NCBI GenBank assembly: GCA_963727865.1
Contig: CAVSHY010000017.1
Span: 109 to 64,108, forward strand
DNA from: an uncultured delta proteobacterium
Lineage (GTDB): Bacteria; Desulfobacterota; GWC2-55-46
Direction of reading: 5' to 3'
DNA length: 64,000 bases
Each line of letters opens with the position of its first letter. Position 1 is the stretch's first letter. The notes under the pieces were generated by a model. It was not told the DNA's origin, did not search any database, and was given only the letters and a program-made list of their open reading frames with translations. This document shows positions 1,990 to 62,500 of this stretch, one piece after another. The translations under genes were made by a program, and so were the position numbers.

Positions 1990-2018
1990 TGATAATATGT
2001 TTAACGGGTAGTAAAAAT

Positions 2019-2373: not shown

Positions 2374-2414
2374 GCCGGCGTTGATACGGGAAAGACGGCG
2401 CTACGGCGTGAAAA

Positions 2415-8763: not shown

Positions 8764-10953
8764 CTACTTCTTGAGTTTAAACCTTCTTATGCTCTCCATG
8801 AGGTTTTTATTCATTTCGGCCATTTCATCAAATGACCTGTCGGTCTCTTTTGTCTTCTCTATATTTTCCATGGATACCTTCCTCACCGTGTCTATGGCTT
8901 CAAGTACCTTTACGGTATTCCTGCTCTGGTCCCTGACCAGATGCTTGATGTGCGTGATTATCTTATTAAGTTCTTCCATCGTCGCGGTAATATGGTTATT
9001 CGACTCGACCTGCGATCTTGCAGAACCTTTTACCTTATACGCTATCTCCGCCATGCGTTCCGATGCTTTATTGATAAGCTCGCTGCCTCTGGCCTGTTCC
9101 TGCGTGGCGTTTACTATTCTCCGGGTCATCCCGGCGACCTTCTCAATCGCTTCCACAACCATGCGGCTTTGCCGTGCTTGTTCTCCCGCGGCCTTTGCTA
9201 TCTCCAGGACGCTGCCGGTCGATCTCTGGGCGCTGCCGACTATCTTTTTAAGTCCTTCTCCGGATTCTATAGAAAGCCTTGCCCCTTCTTCAGCGTTCCC
9301 AAACCCCTTTTCTATCGACTTGACGGCCCTTTCGCTCTCTATTTCAACCGCCTGGATTATCTCAGAGACCTCCTTTGCCGATGTGGAGGTCCTTTCAGCA
9401 AGGTCCTTCATCTCGTTAGCGACAACAGAGAAGCTCTTGCCGTGTTCGCCGGATTGCGCCGCTATAATGGCGGCGTTAAGGGCCAGGAGGTTTGTCTCCT
9501 CCGCGACATCCTGAATTACATTCAGAATTTTATTTATCTCCTTGATCCTGTCGCACAGGCTATTCATAATAAGGGTTGACTCGCCGGCGGTCTCCTTGAT
9601 CTTCATTATGCCGTCTATTGAGCGCTCCACGGTCTCCATCCCGGCCCTGGCGTCCCTTATAACGCCGTCCGCGAACCTGGCGGCTTCCGCGGCGTTCGTC
9701 TCAACTTCCTTGATCCGCGCGTTTATCTGCGCCATGGATGCAGATACCTGGGTTATTGCGGAAGAAAGGTTTTCAATATTTTCAGAAATCTCCTTTATTG
9801 AGAAAGACATGTCTTTGGTCGATTCCGCCGTCTCGTCCACGCTTGAAAAAAGCGATTCCATGTTGTCCGCGATCTCGTTCACGCTCGCGCCGAGATCAAG
9901 CAGAGAGGAAGAACCGCGCTCAATTAATGATGCGAATATCCCGGTCTCCCGGGATATCTCATCCACGAACGCACCGATTTCCTCCATATTCTCCCTGATG
10001 GAATCCAGTGTCATTCCCTGCTTGTTGGACCCCTCAAGCACGTGCCTGCTCATTTCCAATACCCTGTCAGAGATCTCCCCTTCTCTCTCGGAAGCACGCC
10101 GTATCTCTTCGATAGCACCGTGGAAGTTTCTTACCAGATCATTTATGCGGGCGGCGAGGTCCCCTATCTCATCGTTCGATTCCACGGACACTTCATTTGT
10201 GAGGTCGCCCATGGCAAGATATTTCGTATTGTCAGAGAGGTTCAATATCGGGGTTGTCACGACCCGCCTGATAAAGTAAAGTCCCGCGAGACCCATAAGA
10301 AGCATAACGGCAAACCCGTAGCCGATGGAACGCCAGACCCATGAGACAGCCGCTGCTGTCTCGTCCTGTATGGGCACTACGATCTCAAGGCCCCCGATAA
10401 CATCTCCTATCCTGTAATCCCTCCTGGGGCTGGACGGGTAACTATTATGGCAATCGACGCAGGTCTGCGAGGTGGCTATATCAGGCACCATGTACCTCAG
10501 GGACTCTACTCCGTTATATTTTTCAAAGCTGAAGCGCCTGGTGTCGGCGCCTTTGGAAAACAGTTCGAGGGCCTCCCGCTGAAAAGAATCCTTCGGCGCG
10601 CTGGCCGGGTTGATGGGACTGAGGCTTACGATCCCAATGTGAAAATCGCTTTCACCGCCTAAAGACTGCGCGACCTCTTTTATGAAAGTGGCGGGAAGAG
10701 GGATCGATTTGTCGATATCGTGATATGACCCGCTTACGGTAAGGCCCGCGTCCAATGCCCTTTTGACGACTGTGGCGGTATAGAATTGCCTATCCGCGGT
10801 TATTTCCCTTGAAAGGTAGCTTGCCGTCGTCAAAGCCATCCTTCTGGTCTGCGCGATCCTTTCCCTGTAGATATAAACGCCGTAGATCCCGAAAATGACA
10901 GTCCAGATCAAAACTGCGAATATTAATAACTTGACCCTGATGCTAAACCTCAT
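8764..10953 (-). CDS. Methyl-accepting chemotaxis protein with a periplasmic heme-c (DUF3365/Tll0287-like) sensor domain
   Basis: N-terminal TM helix, then a periplasmic domain ending in CVDCHNSYPSSPRRDYRIGDVIGGLEIVVP (CxxCH plus the DUF3365-type tail). A second TM helix, a HAMP domain and a long helical signalling domain with TNLLALNAAIIAAQSGEHGKSFSVVANEMKDLAE follow. ATG 10953 is preferred over GTG 10962. Confidence 0.85.
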   Translation of the reverse strand: MRFSIRVKLLIFAVLIWTVIFGIYGVYIYRERIAQTRRMALTTASYLSREITADRQFYTATVVKRALDAGLTVSGSYHDIDKSIPLPATFIKEVAQSLGGESDFHIGIVSLSPINPASAPKDSFQREALELFSKGADTRRFSFEKYNGVESLRYMVPDIATSQTCVDCHNSYPSSPRRDYRIGDVIGGLEIVVPIQDETAAAVSWVWRSIGYGFAVMLLMGLAGLYFIRRVVTTPILNLSDNTKYLAMGDLTNEVSVESNDEIGDLAARINDLVRNFHGAIEEIRRASEREGEISDRVLEMSRHVLEGSNKQGMTLDSIRENMEEIGAFVDEISRETGIFASLIERGSSSLLDLGASVNEIADNMESLFSSVDETAESTKDMSFSIKEISENIENLSSAITQVSASMAQINARIKEVETNAAEAARFADGVIRDARAGMETVERSIDGIMKIKETAGESTLIMNSLCDRIKEINKILNVIQDVAEETNLLALNAAIIAAQSGEHGKSFSVVANEMKDLAERTSTSAKEVSEIIQAVEIESERAVKSIEKGFGNAEEGARLSIESGEGLKKIVGSAQRSTGSVLEIAKAAGEQARQSRMVVEAIEKVAGMTRRIVNATQEQARGSELINKASERMAEIAYKVKGSARSQVESNNHITATMEELNKIITHIKHLVRDQSRNTVKVLEAIDTVRKVSMENIEKTKETDRSFDEMAEMNKNLMESIRRFKLKK

Positions 10954-11155
10954 AATCCTCACGTTCCTCTGAAGTTTCAGATAGGGGGCATTTTCAAAAA
11001 AACAACGTAACTACGGCTATTTACCCGATATTATAGTATAAACTGGCTTTTTACAAGATTTTTCTATTAACGGTTTGCGGGAAAAGGAGATCTCTCAGAA
11101 TGGAAAAATACATAAGTATCAAGGAGGATAGTTACCGTAAAAAACTTCATCGTGC

Positions 11156-12697
11156 CTACACAACGCGCTTAGCGGCTTTAAGGTCGCCATGAAACCTAAC
11201 AAGGCTTCTCAGGAACCGGCGCCTCTCTACGGCGGAAAACCATGCCGTTTTTATCCATGTCCTGTCGACAGACTTTTTTAGAACCGGGGGACGTCGACTG
11301 TTGATACGCTCCGTTAGCCATTCATTTCCTCTTCTAAAATGACAATCCCCCGTTACACAGCCGGCGATGAAAACCCCGTCGAAGAGTCCATCCTCGACCG
11401 ACATCGCGATCATCGAAGGTTGAAGCTGACCTATGCACTGAAGCGTCAGTACCCTGGCCCATTCAAACCCCTTAAGGCTTTCCCCGCCGTCCATATAAAC
11501 CCCTTTCGCGCAGGAAAATACTAAAACTTTCGTATCCTGCCCCTCTTCTTTAAGTTCTTCCGAAAGTCTCTTTATCTCGCTTTTTAAATAATCCTCGGTC
11601 ATATCCGGCAGGCTCATGGCCTTATAATCACAGGACCCGGTGCATACGCCGCAGCTCGCGCACCTCTTGGGATTAACCACGGCCTCGAGGTCATACGGCA
11701 TATCGTCAGTCCTCGGCCTCATCCGTATGGCCTCATAAGGGCAATCCTCCATGCAGAGCTCGCACCCCGTGCAATTCCTGTACGTTACAACGGCCGCAGC
11801 CTTGCTCTCTTCGCGCGTAAGCCAGGGCACTATTGCTACTATCATTGTAACCGAAACCACAAAGAGCCATACGGCGCGCGCCGGCATATGCCTTAAGAGC
11901 GGATAGACAAACATGAAAAGCCAGTCAAAGGGCACGGCTGGAGAGAGCTTTTTAAGGTCAGCCGGAGGAGCGCTTACCGCCGGGTGGATTAGCGCGATGA
12001 CGAGAAGCGTTATTACGACCGCGTAAGCCATTACCCGCGGCGGTGTGATTATCGCCTTCGTAATCCTGCTCAAGTGCACCATGAGCAGTATAAAGACGAC
12101 CACTATGGAGAAAAAGTGTATGACGAGTATTATGTAGAAGAACTCATCCGTGATATTTTGAATGCTTGCGAAACTGATACTGAGGGGCATTCCCAAAAAT
12201 GGCACGCTCTCCAGCATCCGCGATGAAAACAGGGCTATAAACTTCGCCCTTTCGTCCCAGACCATCCAGTACCCGAATATGCCGCCTATCCATATTATCC
12301 ACATTAAAATCACGCCCGATACCCACGCGATCCATCTCCAGCGCTTGTACCTGTCGAGCGCGTAGCAGCGAAGCGTATGCATGATGCCCGCGAAGACAAG
12401 ACCCTCGGCTGAGTACCTGTGGAGGCTCCTCATAACCCCGCCCAGATACCACTGATCTGCCGTAAGATGCTTAACAGAGTCGTAGGCGCCCCGCGCCGTA
12501 ATAGTATAGAATATGAAAAGGTATATCCCTGAAATAATGATTATCCAGAGGAAAAATATGCCTATCGCGCCTATATAATAAAAGGGGTTATATTCGGAGG
12601 TTGTCAGGGCGTCTATGGTCTTTTCAACACTGAGCCATAGTTTCTCAATAACGCCCGCGGCTTCGAACTTTCTTACGTTTTCAGTATTTTTTGCCAT
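11156..12697 (-). CDS. Fusion protein: di-heme cytochrome b (6 TM) + 2x[4Fe-4S] ferredoxin + MvhD/FlpD-like domain (copy 1)
   Basis: Cytochrome b His pairs at canonical spacing (SLHRYSAEGLVFAGIMH and VIHFFSIVVVFILLMVH). A PEWY-equivalent loop PFDWLF. Cluster motifs CTGCELCMEDCP and CASCGVCTGSC. The C-terminus LQCIGQLQPSM...DGVFIAGCVTGDCHFRRGNEW resembles MvhD. The start is ATG 12697. Confidence 0.85.
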   Translation of the reverse strand: MAKNTENVRKFEAAGVIEKLWLSVEKTIDALTTSEYNPFYYIGAIGIFFLWIIIISGIYLFIFYTITARGAYDSVKHLTADQWYLGGVMRSLHRYSAEGLVFAGIMHTLRCYALDRYKRWRWIAWVSGVILMWIIWIGGIFGYWMVWDERAKFIALFSSRMLESVPFLGMPLSISFASIQNITDEFFYIILVIHFFSIVVVFILLMVHLSRITKAIITPPRVMAYAVVITLLVIALIHPAVSAPPADLKKLSPAVPFDWLFMFVYPLLRHMPARAVWLFVVSVTMIVAIVPWLTREESKAAAVVTYRNCTGCELCMEDCPYEAIRMRPRTDDMPYDLEAVVNPKRCASCGVCTGSCDYKAMSLPDMTEDYLKSEIKRLSEELKEEGQDTKVLVFSCAKGVYMDGGESLKGFEWARVLTLQCIGQLQPSMIAMSVEDGLFDGVFIAGCVTGDCHFRRGNEWLTERINSRRPPVLKKSVDRTWIKTAWFSAVERRRFLRSLVRFHGDLKAAKRVV

Positions 12698-12877
12698 CAA
12701 GCAGAGGATCCTTTGAAAGGGCGCGGGTATGGTAAATTAACTTCTGCATTATAGATTTTTTTCAGGGTTTTGTTAAGACGGAAATGCCGGCACAAAATCT
12801 CTTTTAACCGCTCTAAAAGTGGTTTTGCGCCGGGGCGGGAATTCCCCCGGAGTACCGGGCGGTCCTTATCAAGGCTT

Positions 12878-13468
12878 TTATTCGAGGACGAGCTTATTGG
12901 TAGCGTTGTCGAACCTCAGGAGTAAAATCTGCCTTGGTTTTATGTCAACGGTTTCTTCTATGGTAAAATCAGGCTTATCTTTAGCGCCGCTGTCATATAA
13001 ACCGGCGGAAATCCTGTGAGTCCCAGGTTTTACAATGAACTCATCATACGCGTAAGAGGCCATATCCCTCTTTATACCCTTCGGTTTATAAGCCCTGTCA
13101 AGCATAATATTGCCATCAACGGAAAGCTCAACGACCACGGGGAACCTTTCACGCGGGCAGCCGGACAACCTTCCCATGTTCATTTTTATGCGTTTTTCCG
13201 TCTTAAGGATTTCGCGGTATCTTTCGCCCTCTTTCTTGATGACATCGGCCTCGTTGCAGTTCGCTATCCTTTTCCCGGTGTGCTGGAAGGCCACTTTTAT
13301 TGACGCCTCGCCGGGAGAATAGAACGAATAGGAAGAATTCGAAAGATAAAATACCGGCAAAGCAAACATAACCAAAAGGACCACTATGACTTTTATGAGG
13401 CTTACCATGTCAAACGGTTTTTCCCCGCCAGCTTCAACCGATTTTTTATTTGTATGAGCATTACCCAT
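12878..13468 (-). CDS. Membrane-anchored hypothetical protein (single N-terminal TM, beta-rich extracytoplasmic domain)
   Basis: 196 aa. TM helix LIKVIVVLLVMFALPVFYL followed by a beta-strand-like pattern. Its ATG lies 2 nt after the stop of the upstream cytochrome b fusion, which suggests translational coupling. No family recognised. Confidence 0.6.
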   Translation of the reverse strand: MGNAHTNKKSVEAGGEKPFDMVSLIKVIVVLLVMFALPVFYLSNSSYSFYSPGEASIKVAFQHTGKRIANCNEADVIKKEGERYREILKTEKRIKMNMGRLSGCPRERFPVVVELSVDGNIMLDRAYKPKGIKRDMASYAYDEFIVKPGTHRISAGLYDSGAKDKPDFTIEETVDIKPRQILLLRFDNATNKLVLE

Positions 13469-13470
13469 GT

Positions 13471-15006
13471 TTAAACGCTCCTTTTGTCATTAAGGTTCTT
13501 ATGGAACTCTCCGAGTTCCTCCAAAAGCGGGCCTTTTTCCACAGCCGACAGCCACGCGGTCTTTATCCTGCTTCTATCTATCGATTTTTTGACTACAGGC
13601 GTACGGTAACCGTTGATGCGTCCCGCGAGCCATTCGTTGCCGCGCCTGAAGCTGCAATCGCCCAACCTGCATCCGGCGATAAAAACCCCGTCGACCCCTT
13701 TTTCAAAAGGTATATCAAGCATCGACGGCTGGAGAGTACCTATGCACTGAAGGGTTATAACCCGCGCCCATTCAAAACCCCTGACCTTGCCGCCAGCGTC
13801 AATTGTATCGTCCGGCCAGGCGCCCATGGCGCACGCGAATACTATTACCTTCTTACCGCGAGATGCCCCCATAAGTTCATCCGAAAGCTTCCCTATCTCA
13901 TTTTTTACCGCTTCTTCAGTCAGATCGGGGAAGTTAAGCGCCCTGTAATCGCACGCCCCCATGCATACGCCGCAGCTCGCGCACCTGCTCGGAATCACGA
14001 CGGCCTCGAGCTCATACGGCATGCCGTCTGTCCTGGGCCTCATCTGAATCGCCCCGTACGGGCAGTCTTCCTTGCAGAGCTCGCAGCCGGTGCAATTCTC
14101 TTTATGCACTTCTATCTCAGGGGTCTTCCTTACGCGGGTCAGCCAGGGGATAATGCTTACCATGAGAACCACGGAAACTATAAAGAGCCACAGTTCACGC
14201 TCAGAGAGGTATCTCAAGAGCGGGAAGACAAACATGTAAAACCAGTCAAAGGGCACGGACTGCGGCAGCACCTTGAGGTCAGCGGGGGCGGCGCTTACGG
14301 CGGGGCGGAGGAACGCCAAAAGGAACAGCACGAAAACGAGCACGTAGGCGACTGCTTTCGGCGGGTTAATTACGGACCTGGCGACCCTGCCCAGATGTAT
14401 CATAACGAGGACCGTGACGACTATTATGGAGACAAAGTGTATGGCAAGGATGAGATAGAATACCTGGTCCGCCAGGTTTTCGATCCTCGCGAAGCTAATG
14501 CTCAAGGGCATCCCGAAAACCGGTATCGATTCGATCATCCGCGATAAAAATATCGCGATAAACTTCGCCCTTTCATCCCACACCAGTACGTAGCCGAAGA
14601 TGCCTCCTATCCATATTATGAGGACCATCATTATCCCGGTTACCCATGAGACCCATCTCGTGTGCTTATACCTGTCGAGCACATAATGGCGCACCCCATG
14701 GGTCAGGGCGGCGATGACCAGACCGCCGGAGGCGTACCTGTGAAGGCTCCTGATGATCCCGCCGAGATACCACTGATGCACGGTAAGGTACTCGACGGAG
14801 TTATACGCCCCTGACGCGCTTATACCGTAGAATACGAAAAGGTAGATGCCGGTAATAAAGATTATCCAGAGGAAAAAGATGCTTACCGCCCCGAGATAAT
14901 AAAAGGGGTTGTATTCGGAAGTCGTCAAAAGGTTTAAAAACTTCTCAATCTTAAGCCAGAGGCCCCAGAGCGGGCCCGGCCTTTTATATGCTCTCGCGCC
15001 TTCCAT
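13471..15006 (-). CDS. Fusion protein: di-heme cytochrome b (6 TM) + 2x[4Fe-4S] ferredoxin + MvhD/FlpD-like domain (copy 2)
   Basis: Paralogue of 11156-12697 with the same architecture: SLHRYASGGLVIAALTH, AIHFVSIIVVTVLVMIH, PFDWFYMF, CTGCELCKEDCP, CASCGVCMGAC, LQCIGTLQPSM...DGVFIAGCRLGDCSFRRGNEW. The start is ATG 15006. Confidence 0.85.
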   Translation of the reverse strand: MEGARAYKRPGPLWGLWLKIEKFLNLLTTSEYNPFYYLGAVSIFFLWIIFITGIYLFVFYGISASGAYNSVEYLTVHQWYLGGIIRSLHRYASGGLVIAALTHGVRHYVLDRYKHTRWVSWVTGIMMVLIIWIGGIFGYVLVWDERAKFIAIFLSRMIESIPVFGMPLSISFARIENLADQVFYLILAIHFVSIIVVTVLVMIHLGRVARSVINPPKAVAYVLVFVLFLLAFLRPAVSAAPADLKVLPQSVPFDWFYMFVFPLLRYLSERELWLFIVSVVLMVSIIPWLTRVRKTPEIEVHKENCTGCELCKEDCPYGAIQMRPRTDGMPYELEAVVIPSRCASCGVCMGACDYRALNFPDLTEEAVKNEIGKLSDELMGASRGKKVIVFACAMGAWPDDTIDAGGKVRGFEWARVITLQCIGTLQPSMLDIPFEKGVDGVFIAGCRLGDCSFRRGNEWLAGRINGYRTPVVKKSIDRSRIKTAWLSAVEKGPLLEELGEFHKNLNDKRSV

Positions 15007-15081
15007 CAACTTTTGTCCTCTTTTTAATTTATTTCTTTAAATCAGGAAACTCCAGGTCTGTCATGCTGCAGGCTCCGATCT

Positions 15082-15912
15082 TCAGGGGCCGCGCCCAAAA
15101 CGCCTTCTCGAAAAATTCAGCATCCTGCGGCCCCATACCGCGATGAATACGGCCCCGATAAAAAGAAACTCCAGGAAGAAACCGACCAGCGTCGGATAAT
15201 CTATAACATTCCTGCCCGTAACGGGATCATACCTGGTACAGAAAAAAGCTATCCTTGTTATCAATGAAGTGGTTCTTGAAGTCTGCGCTTTCCCCGTAAG
15301 GAGTTCTTCTATCCTCAAGCCGATTGAATTTGACTGGGTCCTTACGCCGTATACCTGCTTATAGATAACGCCGTCAGGCCTTATGACCGACGCCATATCT
15401 ATATGGTCAAAACCGCCTGTATCATTCCGTACATGGAAAAAACCGAATTGCCCGGTCAGCTTTTCCATCGTCGCCTCATCGGATGTGGCAAACCTGAAAT
15501 TCCTGAAGTCCGAAGTAAAACGGCGCCCATACTCCTTGAGTTTTTCAGGCTTATCCCTTGCGGGGTCGAAGGCTATGCTTAAGACGTTAAACCTGTCGCC
15601 GAACTTTTGCCGCGCCTCGTTGACAGCCTTTTTAAATTCCGCCGTTATTGTCGGGCAGACATCCTTACAGGTCGTGTATATGAAACTTACCACGAGGGGT
15701 TTACCGGTCTTAAAATATTCGCTCAGCTTAAATCCCGCGCCGTCCTGGTCAATCAGGTTATAATCGTCAAGCCTTGCGCCTTCCGCCCTTGCGGAGTTTT
15801 CAAAGGCTTTCCTCAGCGCCTCGACATCCGCGTCCCGCGCGAAAACGCCTGAAGGCAGCAAAAACATCATTAAAGCCGGCAAAAAATATGCGATCCTGTA
15901 ACACGGGTTCAT
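15082..15912 (-). CDS. SCO1/SenC family copper chaperone (thioredoxin fold), with a signal peptide and a C-terminal TM anchor
   Basis: CxxxC motif in FIYTTCKDVCPTITAEF and a downstream His (GGFDHID). The sequence is SCO1/SenC-like overall. The C-terminal hydrophobic helix is LVGFFLEFLFIGAVFIAVW. Confidence 0.85.
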   Translation of the reverse strand: MNPCYRIAYFLPALMMFLLPSGVFARDADVEALRKAFENSARAEGARLDDYNLIDQDGAGFKLSEYFKTGKPLVVSFIYTTCKDVCPTITAEFKKAVNEARQKFGDRFNVLSIAFDPARDKPEKLKEYGRRFTSDFRNFRFATSDEATMEKLTGQFGFFHVRNDTGGFDHIDMASVIRPDGVIYKQVYGVRTQSNSIGLRIEELLTGKAQTSRTTSLITRIAFFCTRYDPVTGRNVIDYPTLVGFFLEFLFIGAVFIAVWGRRMLNFSRRRFGRGP

Positions 15913-16016
15913 CCTTTACGCACCTCTTGGGGCCCCTAACATTAAAAGCCCCGCCAAGAACACCTTAGTAATTTAATCAGTTATTATTATAGTATCCGCA
16001 ATACCCGATGCGATGT

Positions 16017-16030
16017 ATGATTTTTATCAA
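16017..16030. promoter_or_regulatory. Candidate FNR/CRP-family box (aTGAT-N4-ATCAA) upstream of the SCO1 / cytochrome b fusion operon
   Basis: ATGATTTTTATCAA matches 9 of 10 positions of TTGAT-N4-ATCAA. It lies about 105-118 nt upstream of the SCO1 ATG in an AT-rich 369-nt intergenic region. A larger imperfect palindrome (ATCAATA-N12-TATTGAT) overlaps it. Confidence 0.3.
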
Positions 16031-16161
16031 TAGAAAATATTTTTTATTGATTTTATTAGACCGGCGGGCGGCGTTATTTCCGCGGCGTTACAAAAATTTA
16101 TTTTTAATAATAACTCCTATTCCAAATAATTACAAACCGCCCGCAACCGCCCCCTGTCAAA

Positions 16162-16199
16162 AACAACAGGGCTGCCCTTGAAAGGACAGCCCTGTTGTT
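16162..16199 (-). terminator. Rho-independent terminator after the heme-copper oxidase subunit I gene
   Basis: A 13-bp perfect stem AACAACAGGGCTG/CAGCCCTGTTGTT with a 12-nt loop. On the minus strand it is followed by TTTTTG. Confidence 0.75.
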
Positions 16200-16281
16200 A
16201 AGTATTATCGCTTACCCCGCGGCTTTTATCAGGGCAGGACGCCCGCTATGCGTTTTCAGTATCTGACCCCCGCCCCCCCGC

Positions 16282-17802
16282 TTACCCCTCTATCTTCTTA
16301 CCGAAGAAAATCGTTCCGAAGGCTATCAGTATGAAAAGAAGCCCTCCCACAACAGCTAATATCGCTGCTATGGCGAACGCGCTCAGGAACAGGAACGCGG
16401 TCGGGTCGAAGCTGAAGGGAAACGTCGCGCCTGAGAACGTTACGTCATAATGCCTTCTCGGTATGCCGAAGATACCCGAGCTCATCATGAATATCGACTG
16501 AAGCCCGATGGCTATGCCATAAAGATAGGGCTGGATCTGCGCCAGGCCTTTCCAGATAATCCTTCTCCTGAAGACATAGGGGATGAGGAGATAGGTGAAG
16601 CCCATGAAAGCGACCGTGGTGCCGGCGACGACCGTGCCGTGGAAGTGGCCTGTTATCGCCCAGGTATTATGACGGATGATATTATACTGGAGGGTGCCGA
16701 AGATGACGCCAGTGATACCGCCTATAAAGCCGAAGTTAAAGATCGAGATCACGATCCCGGAGAAAGCCGGATTACCCCACGGGGCCTTTTTAAGCCACTC
16801 GAAAAGCCCTCTCGTGTGGCCCTGCTCCCTGAGAGCGACTTCCATGGACGCGGGTATCGCGAAGGCATGGATCATGCTCGCCAGGACCGCCAGATGCATG
16901 ACGTAGCCGGTGTTCGCTATCTTATGCCAGGTGCCGATGACCGGGTCGACGAGCAGGTGGTGCTCGGAGGCGACGTTAATGAAGAGTATGTATAATATGA
17001 AGGCCGTTCTTGAGAGCTTTTCATTTACCGGCTTGCCGCCAAGAACCAGCGAGGAGGTCATGTACCATACCGCGACCATCGCGCAGACGTTTATCTGCTG
17101 CGAAGCGTGGCCAAGGCCCCAGAATACAAGCCTGTAGGCCGAGGGGTTTATCGACGGAATGTAGTCCAATGACCATAACAATGTCGGCACAAATATCCCG
17201 GCGCCGTGAAGGAGAGTAAAAATCCCTATTATGCTCGCCGCGCCAATGCCAAAGGTCCCGAGGGGAAGCGACCTCTTATACCCCCCCTCTCTCTTGGAGA
17301 GGGTTATGTTTACGAAGAAGAGTATGAATCCTAATAAGGCGCCTACGGCAAAGAGTATGACGCCGACGTAATAAAGAGGATCGGCCCTTAAAGGAACGTA
17401 GGAGGTGAATAAAACGTCTCCCCCTCCCATCAGGACCACGACGTTAATGACCGCCCCGCCTATAAGCATGAGCGCGAAGCCAAGCCACCCCAGACCCGGC
17501 CAGTGAGACCGGGTGCCAAGAAGCGCGGCAGAGGCGAAATGAACGAGCGCGATCTCGAAAAAGATTATCCACGCGAGCAAGGCGTCTATGCCGTGCAGCG
17601 TCAGAAACCTGTAGAAGAAAACAAGCGGAAGCAGATGCACGCTTGGCCACCTTGTCATCGCGACCAAGAAAGCAAAAAGCCCGCCTACCGCCAGGGTCGC
17701 GAAGGCCGCTATCAAGTTCCACTTGATAAGGTTAGCCGTGCCCTTGTCAATCCTGGCCTTAAGGCCGTCAAAGGGACTTTGCCATAGATCCAAGTCTGCC
17801 AT
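16282..17802 (-). CDS. Heme-copper oxidase superfamily subunit I, ba3 (B-family)-like but lacking the cross-linked Tyr (HASQQ); possibly NO-reductase-type
   Basis: 506 aa and about 12 TM helices. By-eye alignment with Thermus ba3 CbaA covers FLTLHG (heme b His), FWGLGHASQQ (ba3 has WWTGHPIVY), SEHHLL (ba3 has GFHHQF) and NTWAITGHFHGTVVAG (ba3 has NTAWVPGHFHLQVASL). Confidence 0.9.
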   Translation of the reverse strand: MADLDLWQSPFDGLKARIDKGTANLIKWNLIAAFATLAVGGLFAFLVAMTRWPSVHLLPLVFFYRFLTLHGIDALLAWIIFFEIALVHFASAALLGTRSHWPGLGWLGFALMLIGGAVINVVVLMGGGDVLFTSYVPLRADPLYYVGVILFAVGALLGFILFFVNITLSKREGGYKRSLPLGTFGIGAASIIGIFTLLHGAGIFVPTLLWSLDYIPSINPSAYRLVFWGLGHASQQINVCAMVAVWYMTSSLVLGGKPVNEKLSRTAFILYILFINVASEHHLLVDPVIGTWHKIANTGYVMHLAVLASMIHAFAIPASMEVALREQGHTRGLFEWLKKAPWGNPAFSGIVISIFNFGFIGGITGVIFGTLQYNIIRHNTWAITGHFHGTVVAGTTVAFMGFTYLLIPYVFRRRIIWKGLAQIQPYLYGIAIGLQSIFMMSSGIFGIPRRHYDVTFSGATFPFSFDPTAFLFLSAFAIAAILAVVGGLLFILIAFGTIFFGKKIEG

Positions 17803-18005
17803 CTTAAAAACCTCCCTTTCTGATTTAAACTATCCGGGATCGTCCCGGTAACCCGCTATTCCAGGCTTGCGCCTTATTATTACTTCAATAAATCCAGGCC
17901 GGCATGATTGTGGACGCGGTTCTGGCGGGCCTGCGCGCTATTAAAACCCTCCCCCTCTCCCTCCACGGCCAATCACAAACCATGATTCCGGCAACGCGGC
18001 TCCGC

Positions 18006-18140
18006 TCAGCGGACGTTCCAGACCTCTACAAGCCATTTCAGGTGCGCGAACCACGCTATCATGAATGTCGCCAGGAATATTAAAGCCAGGACAAATACGC
18101 CGGGGGCTTCCATATGTTCGCCGTGCTTTTCGTCTGACAT
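18006..18140 (-). CDS. Small single-TM subunit (ba3 subunit IIa-like), 44 aa; absent from the ORF track
   Basis: GGAGGCAAAG precedes the ATG. Translation is MSDEKHGEHMEAPGVFVLALIFLATFMIAWFAHLKWLVEVWNVR, with one hydrophobic helix. It lies between the subunit II and subunit I genes, the position occupied by the third small subunit in ba3-type operons. Confidence 0.55.
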   Translation of the reverse strand: MSDEKHGEHMEAPGVFVLALIFLATFMIAWFAHLKWLVEVWNVR

Positions 18141-18170
18141 CTTTGCCTCCTTTTAAATTAACCCTGCCGC

Positions 18171-18698
18171 TTATTCTTTTACGTACAATTTCCCCGCCAT
18201 CGTATGATGGCCGAAGCCGCAGAACTCGTTGCAGATGATATGAAACTCGCCGGAGGTCGTCGGAGTAAGGGTAAGCACGTTGTCATATCCGGGGAAGACC
18301 ATGAAGTTCATATCAATGGGCTGGAGCGAAAAGCCGTGGTTGAGGTCCATGGATGATATATGGAACTTATAGGTCTTACCCTTCTCGAGTTCGAGTATCG
18401 GATACCATTCCCACATCTTGGCCCTCAGGAAAACGGGCTCGTTCGCCGGCGGGTGAACTATCGGCATGCCCTGTTCCTCGCCGACCTTGTATTTCGACAC
18501 CATGTTCTCGGTAAGCTTGTCGTAGTCTTCAGGGGTGATCGTATATGTCTCATTGGGCGGGTTATGCGCGCCGATCACTTTGTATACGGGCATGAAGAAA
18601 AAAGTAAAGAGCGCCCATATAAGCGCCACGGTTACCCACAACCTCTCATCCTTGCTGAGAGGCTTCCACCAGATTCTTTCAGGCTCATGTATTGCCAT
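18171..18698 (-). CDS. Heme-copper oxidase subunit II with a CuA cupredoxin domain (ba3-type)
   Basis: One N-terminal TM helix. CuA ligands are present: DLNHGF ... ICNEFCGFGHHTM (CxExCGxxHxxM). The C-terminus resembles ba3 CbaB (EYRIICNQYCGLGHQNM). ATG 18698 is preceded by AAGGAGGA. Confidence 0.9.
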   Translation of the reverse strand: MAIHEPERIWWKPLSKDERLWVTVALIWALFTFFFMPVYKVIGAHNPPNETYTITPEDYDKLTENMVSKYKVGEEQGMPIVHPPANEPVFLRAKMWEWYPILELEKGKTYKFHISSMDLNHGFSLQPIDMNFMVFPGYDNVLTLTPTTSGEFHIICNEFCGFGHHTMAGKLYVKE

Positions 18699-18711
18699 TC
18701 TCAAATCCTCC

Positions 18712-19343: not shown

Positions 19344-20791
19344 TTAGAAGTTCGCCGTAAGCTGAAGATACGCCCAGTCCTGAGCAGTATTTGACGCGCC
19401 TACGTTGTCCTTTATCCATGTACCGGGGATAAAGTGGCCGTAGCCTACCTCGGCTGTTACCGCGTTATTGTACTTGTAGGTTCCCACGAGGTCAATTTCG
19501 TTCCCGAGGGTCTTGTTTGTGCTGGCGACGGTTCCGGCAGGAGCGATGGCAGTGGCTCGCTCCATTAGCGATACCCGCGCTATTCCATTTTCCGGCCTGG
19601 TACCACGCGTCTTCCTTCTGCGCGAGGTTGAAGTTCCACCACGCGGCATAGAGCCTGACCTTATCCATCGGTTCCGCGCTCACGTTCAGGTTGAAGGCGC
19701 TGATGTTCCTCCACGCTACGAGGTCCATGAGGCCGAGCTTGTCGTGGTTCGTCGGGAAGAGGTTGGAGAAGGTCTTATTATCGACGTGTCGGTGCTGTTT
19801 GTGCCTGTGGCGTAGTCATACTCGACGCCCACGTTGACCTTGTTCGGTATCGGGAGCGTGTAGTTTGCCTTTGCCGCGACGGCGTAAGCGTTTAACTTGT
19901 CGTTCGCGCCTATTGCGGTTGCGTTGGTTGAGGGGTGGTTGCTTCCGGTCTGGAAGGGCACTTCAACGCCGTAATCAAACCCCATGTAAGAGCCCGCGAG
20001 CCTTGCGCCGAAAGTATTAAGTGTTGCGCCCTTTGTAGGCAGAGTCGCGAGGGCGGTAGTGCCGCCAAAAGGATTGGAGGTGCAGAAGCTTGAAGGAGTA
20101 ATAACACCGGCTGTAGTGCAGCCGACGTTTCCGTCCCTGACGAGCAACGCGTAGACATCGAGGGTATTGTTCGGGATCGCCTTTATAGTGGCGTATACGA
20201 CCCCAGAAGTCAACGTCATTGCCTGAAACGGTAGTGGCAGTCGGCGTCGCGCTGGTCGCCATGTTTCTTTCGGTCAGCTTTGACCACCATGCGTCTACAT
20301 TGAACATGTCAGAGGCGTAGACGAACTTCAAGGCGTCGAACGCCCTTCCCTGGTTGGACCAGCCAAACGAGCCCACGAGCCTCTGGTCGCCGTAGACGAG
20401 TTCCTGCCGTCCGGCCTTTAACGCTACCGGCGCGCCGAGGAGGTTATCTATGTTCACGTATGCCTCGTGCACGTCAATAGCATTGGCTGATCGCCGTTGG
20501 TCAGGTGCAGGTCCCGCCAGCCGAAGCGAGCCCTTCCTGGCCCCATGTCCTTGAGTCCTGTAGTGTTATCTTCAGCGTTGTGTCGTCCGTAGCCTTTACG
20601 TTGGCCGTGAGCCTTGTCCTCTCGAGCCAGAAGTCCTGCGCGTCCTTGGTGTTCTTGTTAAAATGAAGGCTGTCCCTCCACTCGGTCCTCAGTCTTTCCT
20701 GTCCGCTGAATGTGACATCCGCCGCGTTTGAGGGTGCTGCCCACGCAACTGCGACAGCCGCCGCAAAAACCGACAATAAAATTCTCTTCAT
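19344..20791 (-). pseudogene. Outer-membrane beta-barrel porin (alginate-export/AlgE-like family) broken by at least five frame changes
   Basis: Four ORF-track fragments in three frames join into one protein. The pieces are the signal peptide MKRILLSVFAAAVAVAWAAPSNA, then HEAYVNIDNLLGAPVALKAGRQELVYGDQRLVGSFGWSNQGRAFDALKF, and the C-terminal barrel signature ...DWAYLQLTANF. Frame changes are near 20515, 20485, 20203 (a C4 run), 19788 and 19560. Confidence 0.7.
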
Positions 20792-23160: not shown

Positions 23161-24835
<1,675 letters not shown>

Positions 24836-32186: not shown

Positions 32187-32215
32187 TTGACATGCCGGGG
32201 AGAAAATTGTAGATT
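32187..32215 (+). promoter_or_regulatory. Candidate sigma70-type promoter (TTGACA-N17-TAGATT) for the cytochrome-porin gene
   Basis: TTGACA at 32187-32192, a 17-nt spacer, and TAGATT at 32210-32215. This is about 130 nt upstream of the ATG at 32347. Confidence 0.4.
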
Positions 32216-32346
32216 ACAGGCGATCAAAAAAACTTAATCTATTCAGCCCCAAAGTTAAATACTTTCTTGTCCATTACAGGCTGTCGCATGCCTCTTTATG
32301 AAGCCTGTTCTCGCAAGCTCAAAAAAAATGAGGAGGGAAATTCGAG

Positions 32347-33543
32347 ATGGTTTTAGCGGGTAAGGGGACTGTTGAAAAAGTTTTCCGTTTAAGTGTTTTA
32401 TCTTTATCGGGTCTTGGAGTATTATTATTTTTACTTGCAATTTTTCCTGTAAAATCCGGCGCGATGCCCTTTTTCGCGCGGCAGACAGGAAGGGACTGCG
32501 TCTACTGCCATTCTGTTTACCCCAAACTCAATGAGACAGGGCTAAACTTTCGCGCTAACGGCTACCGGATTGAAGGTCAGGAACTTAAAGAAGTGAAGGA
32601 CTGGGCGTCGATCCCGGCGTCCATGGAGATAACGGTCGCCGGTGAATACAGCGACAATAAGGCAAATGGCAATAGCACCACGGTATCGGGGATAAGAATA
32701 GAGGATGTCGAACTTTCGGCTGGCGGCGCCATGAGTAAAACCGGGAGAGTATCCGCGTTGGGCACCATTTCAGTGGAACAGGGTAATGCCAATGATACCA
32801 ACGCTACGATACAGAAAGCCTTTGTACAGGTAAATGACCTTATGGGCCAGGAGGGGAAAGGGCTTCTTAATGTCAGGGCCGGCCAATGGGAAATAGGTTT
32901 GCCTTTCTTGAGCCCTAGAGAAACCGTCCTAAAGAATAAATATATGACCGAAACGGTCCTGAACGCCTTTACCCTGAATCAGAAGGCCGTTGAACTTAAC
33001 GGTTCCATGAATTTCGAAGAGGGCTCGAAACTTACCGCGCAACGTTACTCTTTAGGCATAGCAAGCCAGGATATTAACAGCGCCAATAAGTTAAAAGCCT
33101 TTTACTTGACCTACGCCCTTACCGTCAGCGAGTTCATGAACGTGGGAATCTTATACAGGAACGGAACAGAAAAAAACAGCGACGGGACTATGGATGTCTC
33201 CTTTAATAAATACGGCATAGGGGTAGAGGGTGAAACAGGCCCCTTCATATTGAGCGCCGGGATTTTCAGGTCTGAAAGGAGCGGAGAAAATTCGCAGGAA
33301 GATTTTCTGGCGGAAGCGCTTTACAGGGCGCCGGTTCCGGGCGTAAGCGCCGGAGGGCGGCTTGAAGCCGTTCAACAATCGGGTAAAAAGACCGCGCATG
33401 CGCTTAGTCTATTCGGAAGATATGACATCATCATGAACGTCTTCACACAGCTTGAATATGATTACCTCAGCGATGCAAGCCACCTCTCCGGCCCAAACGA
33501 CAGAGAAAGCAGGGTTAACCTGTTTTTAGCGGCTGCATTCTAA
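32347..33543 (+). CDS. Fused monoheme cytochrome c / outer-membrane beta-barrel protein (Cyc2-like)
   Basis: A signal peptide, then MPFFARQTGRDCVYCHSVYPKLNETGLNFRANGYR with a single CxxCH directly after the cleavage region. About 330 aa of alternating beta-strand pattern follow, ending in ...RVNLFLAAAF (terminal Phe, an OMP signature). GAGGAGGG lies upstream of the ATG. Confidence 0.7.
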   Translation: MVLAGKGTVEKVFRLSVLSLSGLGVLLFLLAIFPVKSGAMPFFARQTGRDCVYCHSVYPKLNETGLNFRANGYRIEGQELKEVKDWASIPASMEITVAGEYSDNKANGNSTTVSGIRIEDVELSAGGAMSKTGRVSALGTISVEQGNANDTNATIQKAFVQVNDLMGQEGKGLLNVRAGQWEIGLPFLSPRETVLKNKYMTETVLNAFTLNQKAVELNGSMNFEEGSKLTAQRYSLGIASQDINSANKLKAFYLTYALTVSEFMNVGILYRNGTEKNSDGTMDVSFNKYGIGVEGETGPFILSAGIFRSERSGENSQEDFLAEALYRAPVPGVSAGGRLEAVQQSGKKTAHALSLFGRYDIIMNVFTQLEYDYLSDASHLSGPNDRESRVNLFLAAAF

Positions 33544-33597
33544 ATTAGGGAGCCTGGCGGATTTATCTCAGGATAAAAAAACAATCTGTCGAACGCA

Positions 33598-33629
33598 AAA
33601 GCCCCGTTGTATTTTTCAAACGGGGCTTT
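33598..33629. terminator. Bidirectional terminator between convergent genes
   Basis: An 11-bp stem AAAGCCCCGTT/AACGGGGCTTT, flanked by A-rich sequence on the left and T-rich sequence on the right. Confidence 0.7.
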
Positions 33630-33662
33630 TAGCATTGGACTTAAAGAACGGCAGGTTTCTGA

Positions 33663-34214
33663 TTACAGCGCCTTCATTATCGCGCTCTTGAGTTCGTCCT
33701 CCGAAATAGCGCCGGTATGGTCGAAGATGAACCGGCCGTCCCTGCCAACCACCAGGGTCTTTGGTATGCCGTAAAGTTTGTATTCCGAAGCTATCTCCCC
33801 GGTCTCATCCATGCCTACGGAGAAGGTCCAGTTAAATTTCTTTACAAATTTTCTGGCGTCCGCGTCGCTGTCCTGTACGGCCACTCCTACGAACTCTACC
33901 CCTCTATCCTTGAACTCGAGGTAGTTTTTCTCAATTGATGAAGCTTCGATTTTACATGGGCCGCACCAGGAGGCCCAAAAGTTTATCACCAGAGGCCTGC
34001 CTTTAATATCTCCCAGGTTCAGCACACTCCCCCTGAATGTTTTTATCTTAAACGGTATTATCGCGTCCCCTTCGCCTGGCGTCACGGAACGGGCGGCACC
34101 TTCTTTATTTTCCTTACCCGAGGGTTTACATCCATTAATACCGACAAAAAATATGGATATTATAATAAAGGCGGCGAGGTTTTCAGGGTAGCAAAAAAAG
34201 TTTCTTATTTTCAT
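33663..34214 (-). CDS. TlpA/ResA-family thiol:disulfide oxidoreductase (lipoprotein)
   Basis: Lipobox-like GINGC, a thioredoxin motif WASWCGPCKIE, and a TlpA-like fold length (183 aa). Confidence 0.85.
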   Translation of the reverse strand: MKIRNFFCYPENLAAFIIISIFFVGINGCKPSGKENKEGAARSVTPGEGDAIIPFKIKTFRGSVLNLGDIKGRPLVINFWASWCGPCKIEASSIEKNYLEFKDRGVEFVGVAVQDSDADARKFVKKFNWTFSVGMDETGEIASEYKLYGIPKTLVVGRDGRFIFDHTGAISEDELKSAIMKAL

Positions 34215-34236
34215 CCTTTTCCATGAATCGTTTTTT

Positions 34237-34893
34237 TTACTCTTCCACCGTTATCATTCCTATCATACTCTGATGGATAAAACAGAGATAGTAATATTCA
34301 CCCGCTTTTTCAAATTTATGTTCCCAGCTCTCCCCCGGATTTACAGTCGGCGAAAATATCCCGCCCATGCCTATAAACGGCATGGAGGCGAATATATGGC
34401 CGTTAACACCATTATTTACCCATCTGACGGTCCCGCCTTTTTTAATGATGATATTGTCGGGTCTGAAGGTATTTTTTTCGGTTTCCGTCGGTTTCGGGGT
34501 TTCAATAATATACACTCCGTTCGCGGCGGCAGGACGGATAGCGGAGGTAAGCTTGGACTCAAAGATTTTTTTCTTGGCGTTCTTCAAAGGCTCAAAATCA
34601 CCGGTTACATCTTTGTAGGTTTTCGCCATGGATTCCGCTATGAAGAGTTTTGAATCCCTTTCTTCCTTTGTCGCCTGAGGTAGAAAAGATTCGTCGATGA
34701 TCGCCTTAATCTCCGCCGGGATTTTATCCTTGTTTTCTTTAACGATTGAACCCATCTTGACGGCGTCGTTCTTTTCAAAAGCCTCTACGAAACTTTTAGT
34801 AATCTCGGACTCGGCTGAAAAACCCGGGCTGCTCAAGGCAAAAAACGAAGAGAAGGTTAAGGCAAAAATAAAACCAGACCTTTTTAAATTCAT
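34237..34893 (-). CDS. Secreted cupredoxin (type-1 blue copper protein, amicyanin/plastocyanin-like C-terminal domain)
   Basis: Signal peptide. The C-terminal domain has the Cu ligands VNGH... and YYYLCFIHQSM (Cys-x2-His-x2-Met spacing, as in amicyanin). The N-terminal ~110 aa are of unknown function. Confidence 0.7.
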   Translation of the reverse strand: MNLKRSGFIFALTFSSFFALSSPGFSAESEITKSFVEAFEKNDAVKMGSIVKENKDKIPAEIKAIIDESFLPQATKEERDSKLFIAESMAKTYKDVTGDFEPLKNAKKKIFESKLTSAIRPAAANGVYIIETPKPTETEKNTFRPDNIIIKKGGTVRWVNNGVNGHIFASMPFIGMGGIFSPTVNPGESWEHKFEKAGEYYYLCFIHQSMIGMITVEE

Positions 34894-59345: not shown

Positions 59346-59678
59346 ATGGAAACTTACTACAATCCCAATGACCTTGCCAAGTTCCCTTCCATAGGCGAAG
59401 GGGCGCCGGATCTATGGAAGAAATTCAACGAATGGTACGGCGCCGTATTCAGGGAAGGCGCGCTCACGGAAAGGGAGAAGGCTTTGATCGCGCTCGCCGT
59501 CGCCCATGCGGTGCAATGTCCTTACTGCATAGACGCCTACACGCAATCATGCCTTGAAAAAGGATCGAATAAAGAACAGATGACAGAAGCGATCCATGTA
59601 GCCTCGGCCATAAGGGGCGGGGCCTCGCTTGTTCACGGGGTGCAGATGAAAAACGCCGCTGAAAAAATAGGGATGTGA
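59346..59678 (+). CDS. AhpD/carboxymuconolactone-decarboxylase-fold protein (arsenosugar-biosynthesis-associated peroxidase-like)
   Basis: 110 aa. CxxC in AVQCPYCIDAY. It overlaps (TGATG) the downstream radical SAM gene, the usual pairing for this family. Confidence 0.75.
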   Translation: METYYNPNDLAKFPSIGEGAPDLWKKFNEWYGAVFREGALTEREKALIALAVAHAVQCPYCIDAYTQSCLEKGSNKEQMTEAIHVASAIRGGASLVHGVQMKNAAEKIGM

Positions 59679-60910: not shown

Positions 60911-61336
60911 TTGAAAGCTATTACCATATCAATCGTATTCTTTTTGGCCTTATCCGGGCTTTATCAGGTGCCGGCCGCATATTGCTTTCAAAACACGGCA
61001 AAGTCGGATTTTTGCCCCGTTTCGGAACATAAAAACTGTCATCATAAATCATGCCGCCTTGATATGGGCGGGATGAACCGCCGCGGCGCGGCACACAACC
61101 ATTCGGTCCGTCATAAAAGCGGCAACAGCTCTCATTGCGAGACGCGTATAGAATGTTCCCACCCGGATGGGAGCCATCTCTACCCGGCTCACGGTTTTGA
61201 GATTTATTTACCGGCAAAAGTGGAATTATCGGCGTATTACCAGACCTTTTCAAAGAACTCCGAAAAGAAAATAACTTACGATAAAATAATATCTTTCCCC
61301 TTCGAAAGGCCTCCCGCGCTAACAGGTAATCTCTGA
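60911..61336 (+). CDS. Secreted Cys/His-rich hypothetical protein (putative periplasmic metal binder)
   Basis: TTG start and a signal peptide. The mature part is CFQNTAKSDFCPVSEHKNCHHKSCRLDMGG...AAHNHSVRHKSGNSSHCETRIECSHPDGSH. No family recognised. Confidence 0.5.
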   Translation: MKAITISIVFFLALSGLYQVPAAYCFQNTAKSDFCPVSEHKNCHHKSCRLDMGGMNRRGAAHNHSVRHKSGNSSHCETRIECSHPDGSHLYPAHGFEIYLPAKVELSAYYQTFSKNSEKKITYDKIISFPFERPPALTGNL

Positions 61337-61458
61337 TATCAGAGATTCGTTCGCAAGGCGTTCAGGCAGCCATTGTCTTACAATGATATCTAATGGCGCC
61401 GATTCGGTTTTGCGTCACCTTTAGCGCCCGCAACTAAAAAGATTACGGAGGCTCTTTT

Positions 61459-62424: not shown

Positions 62425-62500
62425 AATTTAATTTAAGTTATTTTTGAAGTTCATGGAGCGCGCCCGGGAGGAACCTGTCCCGGGCGCGATAGGGAAGATT

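Follow-up and report, generated by a model that had tools for sequence, protein, structure and literature searches.

Does the locus analysed here encode a dedicated route for extracellular electron uptake, in which an outer-membrane iron oxidase of the Cyc2 type is served by a thioredoxin-like protein and a blue copper protein encoded beside it? The locus lies in a stretch of 64,000 nucleotides from an uncultured delta proteobacterium (contig CAVSHY010000017.1; hereafter the window), and an initial annotation had read three adjoining genes in this way: one for a Cyc2-like fused cytochrome-porin of 398 residues, one for a TlpA-type disulfide reductase and one for a secreted type-1 copper protein (cupredoxin). 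Cyc2 is the most widely used genetic marker of microbial Fe(II) oxidation, and its predictive value outside Cluster 1 of the family is contested. A well-characterised clade from metagenome-assembled genomes (MAGs) of groundwater and sediment 'Deltaproteobacteria' would help to decide the role of Cyc2 proteins outside that cluster. Our analysis suggests that the window probably encodes a true Cyc2-family protein that is independently transcribed, that has the cupredoxin operon as a derived neighbour and whose ancestral partners are a chemoreceptor and a protein with an EB_dh domain.

A well-supported member of the Cyc2 family

All three open reading frames (ORFs) of the initial annotation were recovered (Table 1), and, compared with its homologues, the cyc2-like ORF is complete and unbroken. 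The N-terminus of the 398-residue protein, judged from the sequence, consists of a basic n-region, a 19-residue hydrophobic core (LSVLSLSGLGVLLFLLAIF) and PVKSGA, followed by MPFF; the C-terminus is ...LFLAAAF. The signal peptide, the single CXXCH after it and the terminal Phe that had been described were all present. Keffer et al. 2021 (PMC8406198) characterised Cyc2 proteins by a signal peptide, a lone CXXCH, a minimum of 365 residues and a 16-strand porin resembling OprO/OprP, and by a unique motif, AXPXFAR[Q/K][T/Y], in which FAR stands five residues before CXXCH, with PXL from the fourth residue after it. It can be seen that the window protein, A-M-P-F-F-A-R-Q-T-GRD-CVYCH-SVY-PKL, matches the motif and the PXL element exactly, that its first motif alanine is the -1 residue of the predicted signal-peptide cleavage site, and that it exceeds the minimum length. 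Every published feature of sequence and architecture that we tested (motif, PXL, length and 16-strand porin) was found, and the Cyc2 architecture originally proposed is upheld.

Alignment with 25 homologues showed that P41, F43, R45, C51, C54, H55, P59, L61 and N62 are at least 90% conserved, with L61 invariant, so that the cytochrome motif is not a chance match; the CXXCH residues C51, C54 and H55 are among those conserved. The strict motif P.F[AGS]R.{5}C..CH.{3}P.L occurred in 242 of the 280 family members that were fetched. Almost all of the listed members that lack it retain a single N-terminal CXXCH, and those devoid of CXXCH are mostly fragments. An exhaustive search with a profile of the clade retrieved 4,470 clusters (50% identity) at E <=1e-3 and 2,065 at <=1e-10. 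Scans of the protein against Pfam and NCBIfam returned no family, the sole match being OMP_b-brl (E = 0.065), because neither library has a Cyc2 model.

A model of the protein made with AlphaFold2 (AF2) on the homologue alignment had a mean predicted local distance difference test score (pLDDT) of 82.8 and a predicted template modelling score (pTM) of 0.77. Sixteen strand elements, the number expected of Cyc2, were found within residues 91-397, with pLDDT values mostly of 85-96 in the barrel strands; the N-terminal cytochrome domain had low pLDDT, as expected for a model that lacks haem. The beta-barrel running to the terminal Phe was thus borne out, its length being about 308 residues (91-398) rather than the 330 or so first given, which is a trivial difference. 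When the model was compared with the PDB using Foldseek, the top matches were 16-strand porins, namely Omp32 (4e-14), PorB, OmpF, OprP (2.6e-10) and OprO (1.3e-9). These porins have the barrel fold and strand number in common with the window protein (target-normalised TM-scores 0.48-0.71); however, they are only 10-16% identical to it in sequence and none has an N-terminal haem c domain. No Cyc2 structure was found in the PDB by sequence search.

For direct comparison with a biochemically tested Cyc2 protein, Cyc2PV-1 was recovered using the tandem mass spectrometry peptides of Keffer Table S1 as a pseudo-query, which led to P0293 of Mariprofundus ferrooxydans (7 of the 10 peptides exact). The window protein aligned with it by BLASTP at 2e-12, with 37% identity over residues 34-133 (104 residues), and the clade profile matched it with an hhalign probability of 98.3% (E = 1.3e-14). 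Similarity was limited to the cytochrome domain and first strand, the barrel not being alignable by BLAST; Keffer et al. (PMC8406198) likewise describe the cytochrome domain of Cyc2 as conserved and the porin part as poorly conserved.

The barrel resembles general and anion-selective porins, and a few homologues match the Pfam families Porin_4 and Porin_O_P, as might be expected if the protein were an ordinary diffusion porin that retains a haem-binding N-terminus and takes part in no physiological electron transfer. However, across thousands of clusters no other part of the protein is as highly conserved as the cytochrome motif, which speaks for haem binding being under strong selection; we consider the diffusion-porin explanation very improbable. 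We conclude that membership of the Cyc2 family is well supported. The protein adds one more member to a known family, such as FeGenie-type screens regularly turn up in MAGs, and for the window alone it is an ordinary annotation gain, in which a 'hypothetical protein' becomes a Cyc2-family cytochrome-porin.

Placement among the Cyc2 clusters

We placed the protein by neighbour-joining of 84 sequences (100 bootstraps), a distance-based method applied here to very divergent sequences. The Cluster 1 references in the tree were Zetaproteobacteria only, and neither an A. ferrooxidans sequence nor a labelled Cluster 3 (Leptospirillum) sequence was included. Homologues of Caballeronia and Methylocystis from PLSDB replicons were taken as Cluster-2-like on the strength of PMC10654088, where Burkholderiales/Hyphomicrobiales-type Cyc2 clusters with Acidithiobacillus Cyc2.

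The tree separated the Zetaproteobacterial Cluster 1 and Burkholderiales-type sequences from the window clade and all other groups retrieved with the profile in 86 of 100 replicates. The window clade joined Zetaproteobacterial Cluster 1 in 2/100 replicates and the Burkholderiales type in 0/100, and identity of the window protein to the Caballeronia and Methylocystis homologues was 18-20%. On these sequence comparisons, the protein is placed outside Zetaproteobacterial Cluster 1 and outside the Burkholderiales-type, Cluster-2-like group, and it would belong to Cluster 3 by elimination only. The Cluster 3 homologues, such as Leptospirillum Cyt572 and that of Mariimomonas, form a varied set with long branches, drawn from Nitrospirota, 'Deltaproteobacteria' and others. 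One Cluster 3-type protein, the Cyc2 of 'Ca. Mariimomonas ferrooxydans' from a Thermodesulfovibrionia MAG (PMC13647500, 2026), oxidised Fe(II) when expressed in E. coli, and it was reported to be most similar to a protein from a 'Deltaproteobacteria' MAG (PMC13647500).

A tblastn search against plasmids retrieved homologues only from Ralstonia, Caballeronia, Methylocystis, Paraburkholderia and Ideonella, all matching through the cytochrome domain alone. At canonical proteobacterial cyc2 loci, c-type cytochromes or a high-potential iron-sulfur protein (HiPIP) adjoin cyc2. We also noted that on Caballeronia pSBC1_3 (L054, 4001-5281) the coding sequence of the Cyc2 homologue, annotated 'cytochrome C', begins downstream of its own CXXCH. 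As a signal peptide and LPAFARQTGLACVACH sit in frame upstream, the RefSeq start codon is probably wrong; a HiPIP and a c-type cytochrome flank this gene.

Relationship of cyc2 to the cupredoxin and TlpA-like genes

Only 22 nt separate the cupredoxin gene from the TlpA-like gene, and the two form an operon that is convergent to cyc2. Between the TlpA-like gene and cyc2 lies a hairpin of -26 kcal/mol (z = -5.5), and none of 200 shuffled sequences folded equally well; with an A-run before it and a U-run after it, it is predicted to terminate transcription on both strands. Convergent orientation and this strong terminator indicate separate transcription units, and we conclude from the arrangement of the sequence that cyc2 is a monocistronic unit that neighbours the cupredoxin/TlpA-like operon and does not form one operon with it. 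The intergenic region upstream of cyc2 is 355 nt long and contains a sigma-70-like promoter (Table 1) that can only be called a candidate, because such sites are no commoner in the region than in shuffled sequence.

The initial annotation took the three genes as one module. As a dedicated unit for Fe(II) oxidation or electron uptake, they would pass electrons from Cyc2 to the cupredoxin, acting as an analogue of rusticyanin, and from there to CuA, with the TlpA-like reductase maturing the haem and copper centres. The three genes do adjoin each other in the window, as they do in no fewer than three related contigs (L039, L040 and L041/L042). These are its closest relatives (Cyc2 54-61% identical), in which the order cyc2, TlpA-like gene, cupredoxin gene recurs and the TlpA-like orthologues adjoining cyc2 are 66-68% identical. 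The cupredoxin is secreted, with its type-1 ligands intact, the oxidase of the window has CuA but lacks a cytochrome c domain, the 64 kb contain no gene for a soluble c-type cytochrome, and the rus operon of A. ferrooxidans couples Cyc2, rusticyanin and an oxidase. However, quite apart from convergent transcription across a terminator, the adjacency is indistinguishable from the general synteny of close relatives. In L040 the downstream order is the same, at 74-89% identity, through DUF2400, polyprenyl synthase, EndoIII, a 419-residue protein and an enoyl-ACP reductase-like dehydrogenase (PF13561), and six further downstream genes are syntenic in the closest subclade, whereas the upstream side of cyc2 is different in each of the closest-relative contigs. 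The conserved adjacency therefore resembles general synteny with cyc2 at a breakpoint. Upstream of cyc2 in L039, about 2 kb away, we observed a mobile-element-like block (492-4304; DUF3987, DnaG-type zinc-ribbon primase and HTH_17), which fits the position of cyc2 at a synteny breakpoint.

Nor do the genes keep together elsewhere. A scan of metagenomes for cupredoxin homologues gave ten loci, at 43-78% identity. At one of these the cupredoxin is followed by a TlpA-like gene and at one it has a DUF2400 neighbour; on the long contig L045 no cyc2 or TlpA-like gene occurs within 8 kb of the homologue, and in the GWB2_55_19 genome (L017/L050) 7.7 kb and the ATP synthase operon separate it from cyc2. 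A 198-residue ORF near cyc2 in L017 was considered as a cupredoxin and rejected, the real homologue of that genome being the one 7.7 kb away. Conversely, about 20 loci of the wider clade have cyc2 without a cupredoxin. Conservation of the cupredoxin neighbour therefore held in L039-L042 only and failed at L045, at L050 and across the wider clade.

The TlpA-like neighbour is not distinctive either, because the 64 kb contain three thioredoxin-fold genes, of which that at 62444-63034 shares an operon with a different outer-membrane barrel that is unrelated to Cyc2. The oxidase is 14 kb from cyc2 on the opposite strand. We regard a dedicated three-gene unit as unlikely, and with convergent transcription units, a terminator between them and adjacency confined to the closest subclade, the one-module reading was upheld only in part. 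Evidence linking cyc2 to the copper protein and thioredoxin-like gene is weak, and the gene order is best read as the outcome of a lineage-specific rearrangement that made the cupredoxin/TlpA-like pair a neighbour of cyc2.

The second pairing of a barrel with a TlpA-like protein is found at 60911-63034 (+), where a secreted, His/Cys-rich protein of 141 residues, a barrel-like protein of 321 residues and a Redoxin/TlpA-like paralogue are encoded. The barrel-like protein has a signal peptide, the mature N-terminus CDFC, the C-terminus ...TYLF and no family match, and the paralogue gene follows 19 nt downstream. This group may be a metal (copper?) handling cluster. The barrel (61459-62424) was tried as a Cyc2 homologue and rejected, the hhalign probability being 0.14%.

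A chemoreceptor and an EB_dh protein accompany cyc2 in the wider clade

In about 20 loci from MAGs labelled 'Deltaproteobacteria' or Thermodesulfobacteriota, whose Cyc2 proteins are 33-51% identical to that of the window, cyc2 belongs to a conserved, closely packed cluster. Its genes encode, in order, a chemoreceptor of about 730 residues, a secreted EB_dh protein of about 335 residues, Cyc2 and a cytoplasmic protein of about 195 residues with an MXAN_5187 C-terminal domain. The chemoreceptor has a Tll0287-like sensor, HAMP and a conserved CXXCH near residue 175 (about 175-204 in longer copies); the secreted protein has one CXXCH and an EB_dh (PF09459) haem-binding domain. Gaps within the chemoreceptor-EB_dh-cyc2 cluster are 9-30 nt in many of the loci. 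The cluster loci (L003-L024; for example L003 4493-9862 and L017 4576-9653) usually lie beside the F1 ATP synthase operon. A literature search found no description of a linkage between Cyc2 and a chemoreceptor, and this conserved haem-c chemoreceptor/EB_dh protein/Cyc2 cluster of related genomes is the most interesting by-product of our analysis.

In a neighbour-joining tree the window cyc2 subclade was monophyletic in 100/100 replicates and nested among the EB_dh-linked genes, from which it was separated in only 5/100. Because of this nesting, linkage to the chemoreceptor and EB_dh protein is probably ancestral for the clade and adjacency to the cupredoxin derived. Both ancestral links of cyc2 are absent from the window, and no homologue of the EB_dh/haem-c protein or of the 195-residue protein was found there (best tblastn E ~0.02-1). 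The ORF at 59675-60679 was followed up as an EB_dh-type lead and rejected as a radical-SAM/DUF3641 protein. Apart from cyc2, only two ORFs of at least 100 residues in the window contain CXXCH, those for a radical-SAM protein and for a methyl-accepting chemotaxis protein (MCP) of 732 residues. Its best match in each locus is the cyc2-adjacent MCP (730-759 residues), with 26-31% identity over about 600 residues.

These observations could mean that the protein is chiefly not an energy-conserving iron oxidase but a porin that senses or signals redox state or iron, or else a conduit for electrons leaving the cell. With the haem-c chemoreceptor and EB_dh protein it would guide cells in gradients of Fe(II)/O2 or of redox potential, and in the window lineage the genes would simply have become separated. 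Besides the tight order of chemoreceptor, EB_dh/CXXCH protein and cyc2 in some 20 loci and the apparent ancestry of the chemoreceptor linkage, this reading would account for the retention in the window, at the end of the oxidase cluster, of an MCP with the same architecture and a CXXCH at 168. However, linkage to a chemoreceptor is also compatible with a respiratory role, as energy taxis commonly accompanies respiration. The window MCP, being only about 30% identical to the cyc2-linked MCPs, may be a paralogue, the other two members of the cluster have no homologue in the window, and our literature search found no precedent for a role of this kind. We therefore judge a sensing role to be quite unlikely.

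Other features of the locus and of the window

Coordinates of the features discussed are collected in Table 1. The TlpA-like protein has a WCGPC active site, which is the active site of classical thioredoxin, and a lipobox-like INGC. It matched the Pfam families AhpC-TSA (1e-23) and Redoxin (1e-20), and its best NCBIfam match was ResA (1.3e-29). All scores were nevertheless below the NCBIfam cut-offs: 103 vs 170 bits for ResA, 40.5 vs 230 for TlpA (NF047696) and 65 vs 123 for DsbE. Like TlpA of Bradyrhizobium, ResA of Bacillus and CcmG/DsbE, it is predicted to be a membrane-tethered thioredoxin-fold protein with an active-site CXXC; it differs from them in missing every equivalog or subfamily cut-off. 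The description 'TlpA-type' is therefore sound at the level of the Redoxin/AhpC-TSA superfamily and goes too far if TlpA, ResA or DsbE itself is meant.

The cupredoxin domain (PF00127) scored 31.3 bits against a cut-off of 21.2 (E 2.8e-7), and its ligands H166, C204, H207 and M210 (C-x2-H-x2-M, the amicyanin-like spacing) were invariant in four homologues, in agreement with the secreted type-1 copper protein first annotated. The best PDB match was 5FC9 at 1.9e-8, followed by plastocyanins and amicyanins, and the equivalog cut-offs were missed for amicyanin (TIGR02657, 23.6 vs 110.2), rusticyanin (TIGR03095, 12.3 vs 146.7) and also plastocyanin. Amicyanin, plastocyanin and the 'Blue (Type 1) copper domain protein' 5FC9 share with it the H...C-x2-H-x2-M type-1 ligand set. 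Unlike them, the window protein has at its N-terminus an additional domain, some 120 residues long, for which no family was found. This domain (34237-34600, -, residues 1-~120) is conserved in the ten metagenomic homologues (43-78% whole-protein identity).

Table 1. Coordinates, strand and basis of assignment of features in the window
Feature	Coordinates	Strand	Basis
cyc2-like gene, 398-residue fused monohaem cytochrome c and outer-membrane porin	32347..33543	+	ORF, motif, homologues, AF2, Foldseek, Cyc2PV-1 homology
Predicted signal peptide, residues 1-39, putative cleavage after SGA	32347..32463	+	Read from sequence; AF2 helix 7-31
Cytochrome domain, residues 40-90, MPFFARQTGRD-CVYCH-SVY-PKL	32464..32616	+	Motif match; Cyc2PV-1 similarity
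Haem-binding CVYCH, residues 51-55 (C51/C54/H55)	32497-32511	+	Sole CXXCH of window Cyc2
16-strand beta-barrel, residues 91-398, C-terminal Phe beta-signal	32617..33540	+	AF2 strands; PDB porin matches
Ribosome-binding site GAGGAGG, 10 nt before the cyc2 ATG	32330..32336	+	Direct sequence reading
Sigma-70-like promoter candidate TTGACA-17-TAGATT	32187..32215	+	10/12 positions match; in 355-nt intergenic region
Bidirectional intrinsic terminator hairpin between cyc2 and TlpA-like gene	33595..33630	.	Folding and flanking runs
Thioredoxin-fold predicted periplasmic lipoprotein (TlpA/ResA/DsbE-like), 183 residues, second operon gene	33663..34214	-	Pfam, NCBIfam
Secreted two-domain protein, 218 residues, C-terminal type-1 copper domain, first operon gene	34237..34893	-	PF00127
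Haem-copper oxidase subunit II, 177 residues, complete CuA motif (H...CNEFCGFGHHTM), without fused cytochrome c	18171..18704	-	Motif
44-residue single-helix ORF resembling subunit IIa	18006-18140	-	Between oxidase subunit genes
Haem-copper oxidase subunit I, B family (ba3-like)	16282..17802	-	PF00115 7e-54; Thermus ba3 1EHK/1XME ~1e-35 best PDB matches
MCP, 732 residues, Tll0287-like sensor, CXXCH at C168	8764..10962	-	Pfam; ends oxidase block

The CuA-containing oxidase that had been noted at 16-19 kb is real, subunit I and the CuA-bearing subunit II both having been identified. From the similarity of subunit I and the short CuA subunit without cytochrome c, we assign it as ba3-like, of the B family. 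The genes form part of one co-directional block (8764-18704, -) that comprises CuA subunit II, the IIa-like ORF, ba3-like subunit I, SCO1, two paralogous fusions and, last, the chemoreceptor. The fusions (512-514 residues, with a 196-residue protein of unknown type between them) join a cytochrome b (ExtP/b6-like) to 2x[4Fe-4S] and FlpD/MvhD (HdrA2 C-terminus-like). Such cytochrome b-FeS-MvhD fusions are unusual beside an oxidase; through them the quinone pool could be connected with a low-potential carrier in the cytoplasm.

A gene for an alginate-export/AlgE-like outer-membrane barrel (19344-20791, -), immediately upstream of the oxidase cluster, is broken into at least five overlapping ORFs in differing frames, with a 5' signal peptide and the end ...LTANF; we take it either for a pseudogene or for an artefact of indel errors. 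The pyrG gene for CTP synthase (23161-24826, -) is split into ORFs of 417 and 131 residues, 16 nt apart. A frameshift in essential pyrG, together with the multiply broken porin gene, makes sequencing indel errors likely in this contig.

Discussion

Fe(II) oxidation by the window protein is plausible by analogy with the Cyc2 proteins that have been tested. The predicted domain of about 50 residues would bind one haem c at C51/C54, with H55 as axial ligand, and it is fused to the barrel; if Cyc2PV-1 and A. ferrooxidans Cyc2 are a guide, the haem would be located at the periplasmic mouth of the barrel or inside it. A small soluble reductant, by the same analogy most likely Fe2+, would enter the pore and reduce the haem. 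The presence of a single haem in a narrow barrel of 16 strands makes dissolved Fe2+ a likelier reductant than a solid. From the haem the electron would pass to a periplasmic carrier and on to an oxidase of the inner membrane. The only secreted redox protein encoded nearby is the cupredoxin and the only oxidase in this genome fragment is the ba3-like CuA enzyme. Since the CuA subunit moreover lacks cytochrome c, a route from Cyc2 through the cupredoxin to the ba3-like oxidase is possible, resting on proximity within a fragment of the genome. The cupredoxin/TlpA-like pair is nevertheless best read as an operon of its own, in which the TlpA-like thiol reductase would keep the copper-ligand cysteine of the blue-copper protein reduced.

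A number of points weigh against our preferred interpretation, that of an independently transcribed Cyc2 with ancestral chemoreceptor and EB_dh partners. Whole-length identity of the window protein is about 20% to the PV-1 protein and about 19% on average to 16 Zetaproteobacterial relatives; as identity within Cluster 1 is about 25-53% (Keffer Fig. S7, PMC8406198), the value for PV-1 is at the between-cluster level. The clade thus falls outside the cluster for which neutrophilic iron oxidation is best evidenced, and Keffer et al. (PMC8406198) regard the function of Cluster 3 homologues as the most uncertain. Cyc2 homologues also occur on replicons of organisms not known as iron oxidisers (Ralstonia, Caballeronia and Methylocystis). 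The position of the haem is not fixed by the AF2 model, whose N-terminal domain is of low confidence, and a search upstream of cyc2 revealed neither a Fur box nor any other iron-responsive element, the best Fur-box candidate having 9/19 mismatches. Other carriers, such as c4-type cytochromes and an EB_dh homologue, may be encoded outside the 64-kb window, and in relatives the conserved linkage to a chemoreceptor might indicate that the role is sensing and not respiration.

A wider proposal, which we consider improbable, is that the clade has an undescribed system for redox taxis and electron uptake, built ancestrally from a haem-c chemoreceptor, an EB_dh/haem-c protein and Cyc2, and that the window subclade has been rewired to a two-domain blue-copper protein that feeds a ba3-type oxidase free of cytochrome c. 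If this were true, the rewired periplasmic leg would correspond, at neutral pH, to the rusticyanin route. For the Cyc2 protein as we interpret it, the conserved context (chemoreceptor and EB_dh protein) and the derived context (cupredoxin and TlpA-like protein) offer testable partners for the hand-off of electrons in the periplasm.

Of the characterised proteins, Cyc2PV-1 resembles the window protein in its signal peptide, single CXXCH and signature (IPAFARQTGAACLSCH...FPAL in PV-1; MPFFARQTGRDCVYCH...YPKL in the window protein), in a length of about 400-440 residues, and in having a 16-strand porin and a C-terminal aromatic residue. It differs in that PV-1 is a proven Fe(II) oxidiser, whereas the window lineage is uncultured. 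In A. ferrooxidans the genes cyc2-cyc1-cup-coxBACD-rus make up one operon, the rus operon (PMC10654088). The window shares with Acidithiobacillus an outer-membrane monohaem cytochrome-porin, with a cupredoxin and a CuA haem-copper oxidase in the same region of the genome. In contrast to the coupled operon to which the locus had been likened, however, the window cyc2 is monocistronic and closed by a terminator, no cyc1-like cytochrome gene follows it, the cupredoxin operon converges on it, and the oxidase, which is of the B family, is encoded 14 kb away on the other strand.

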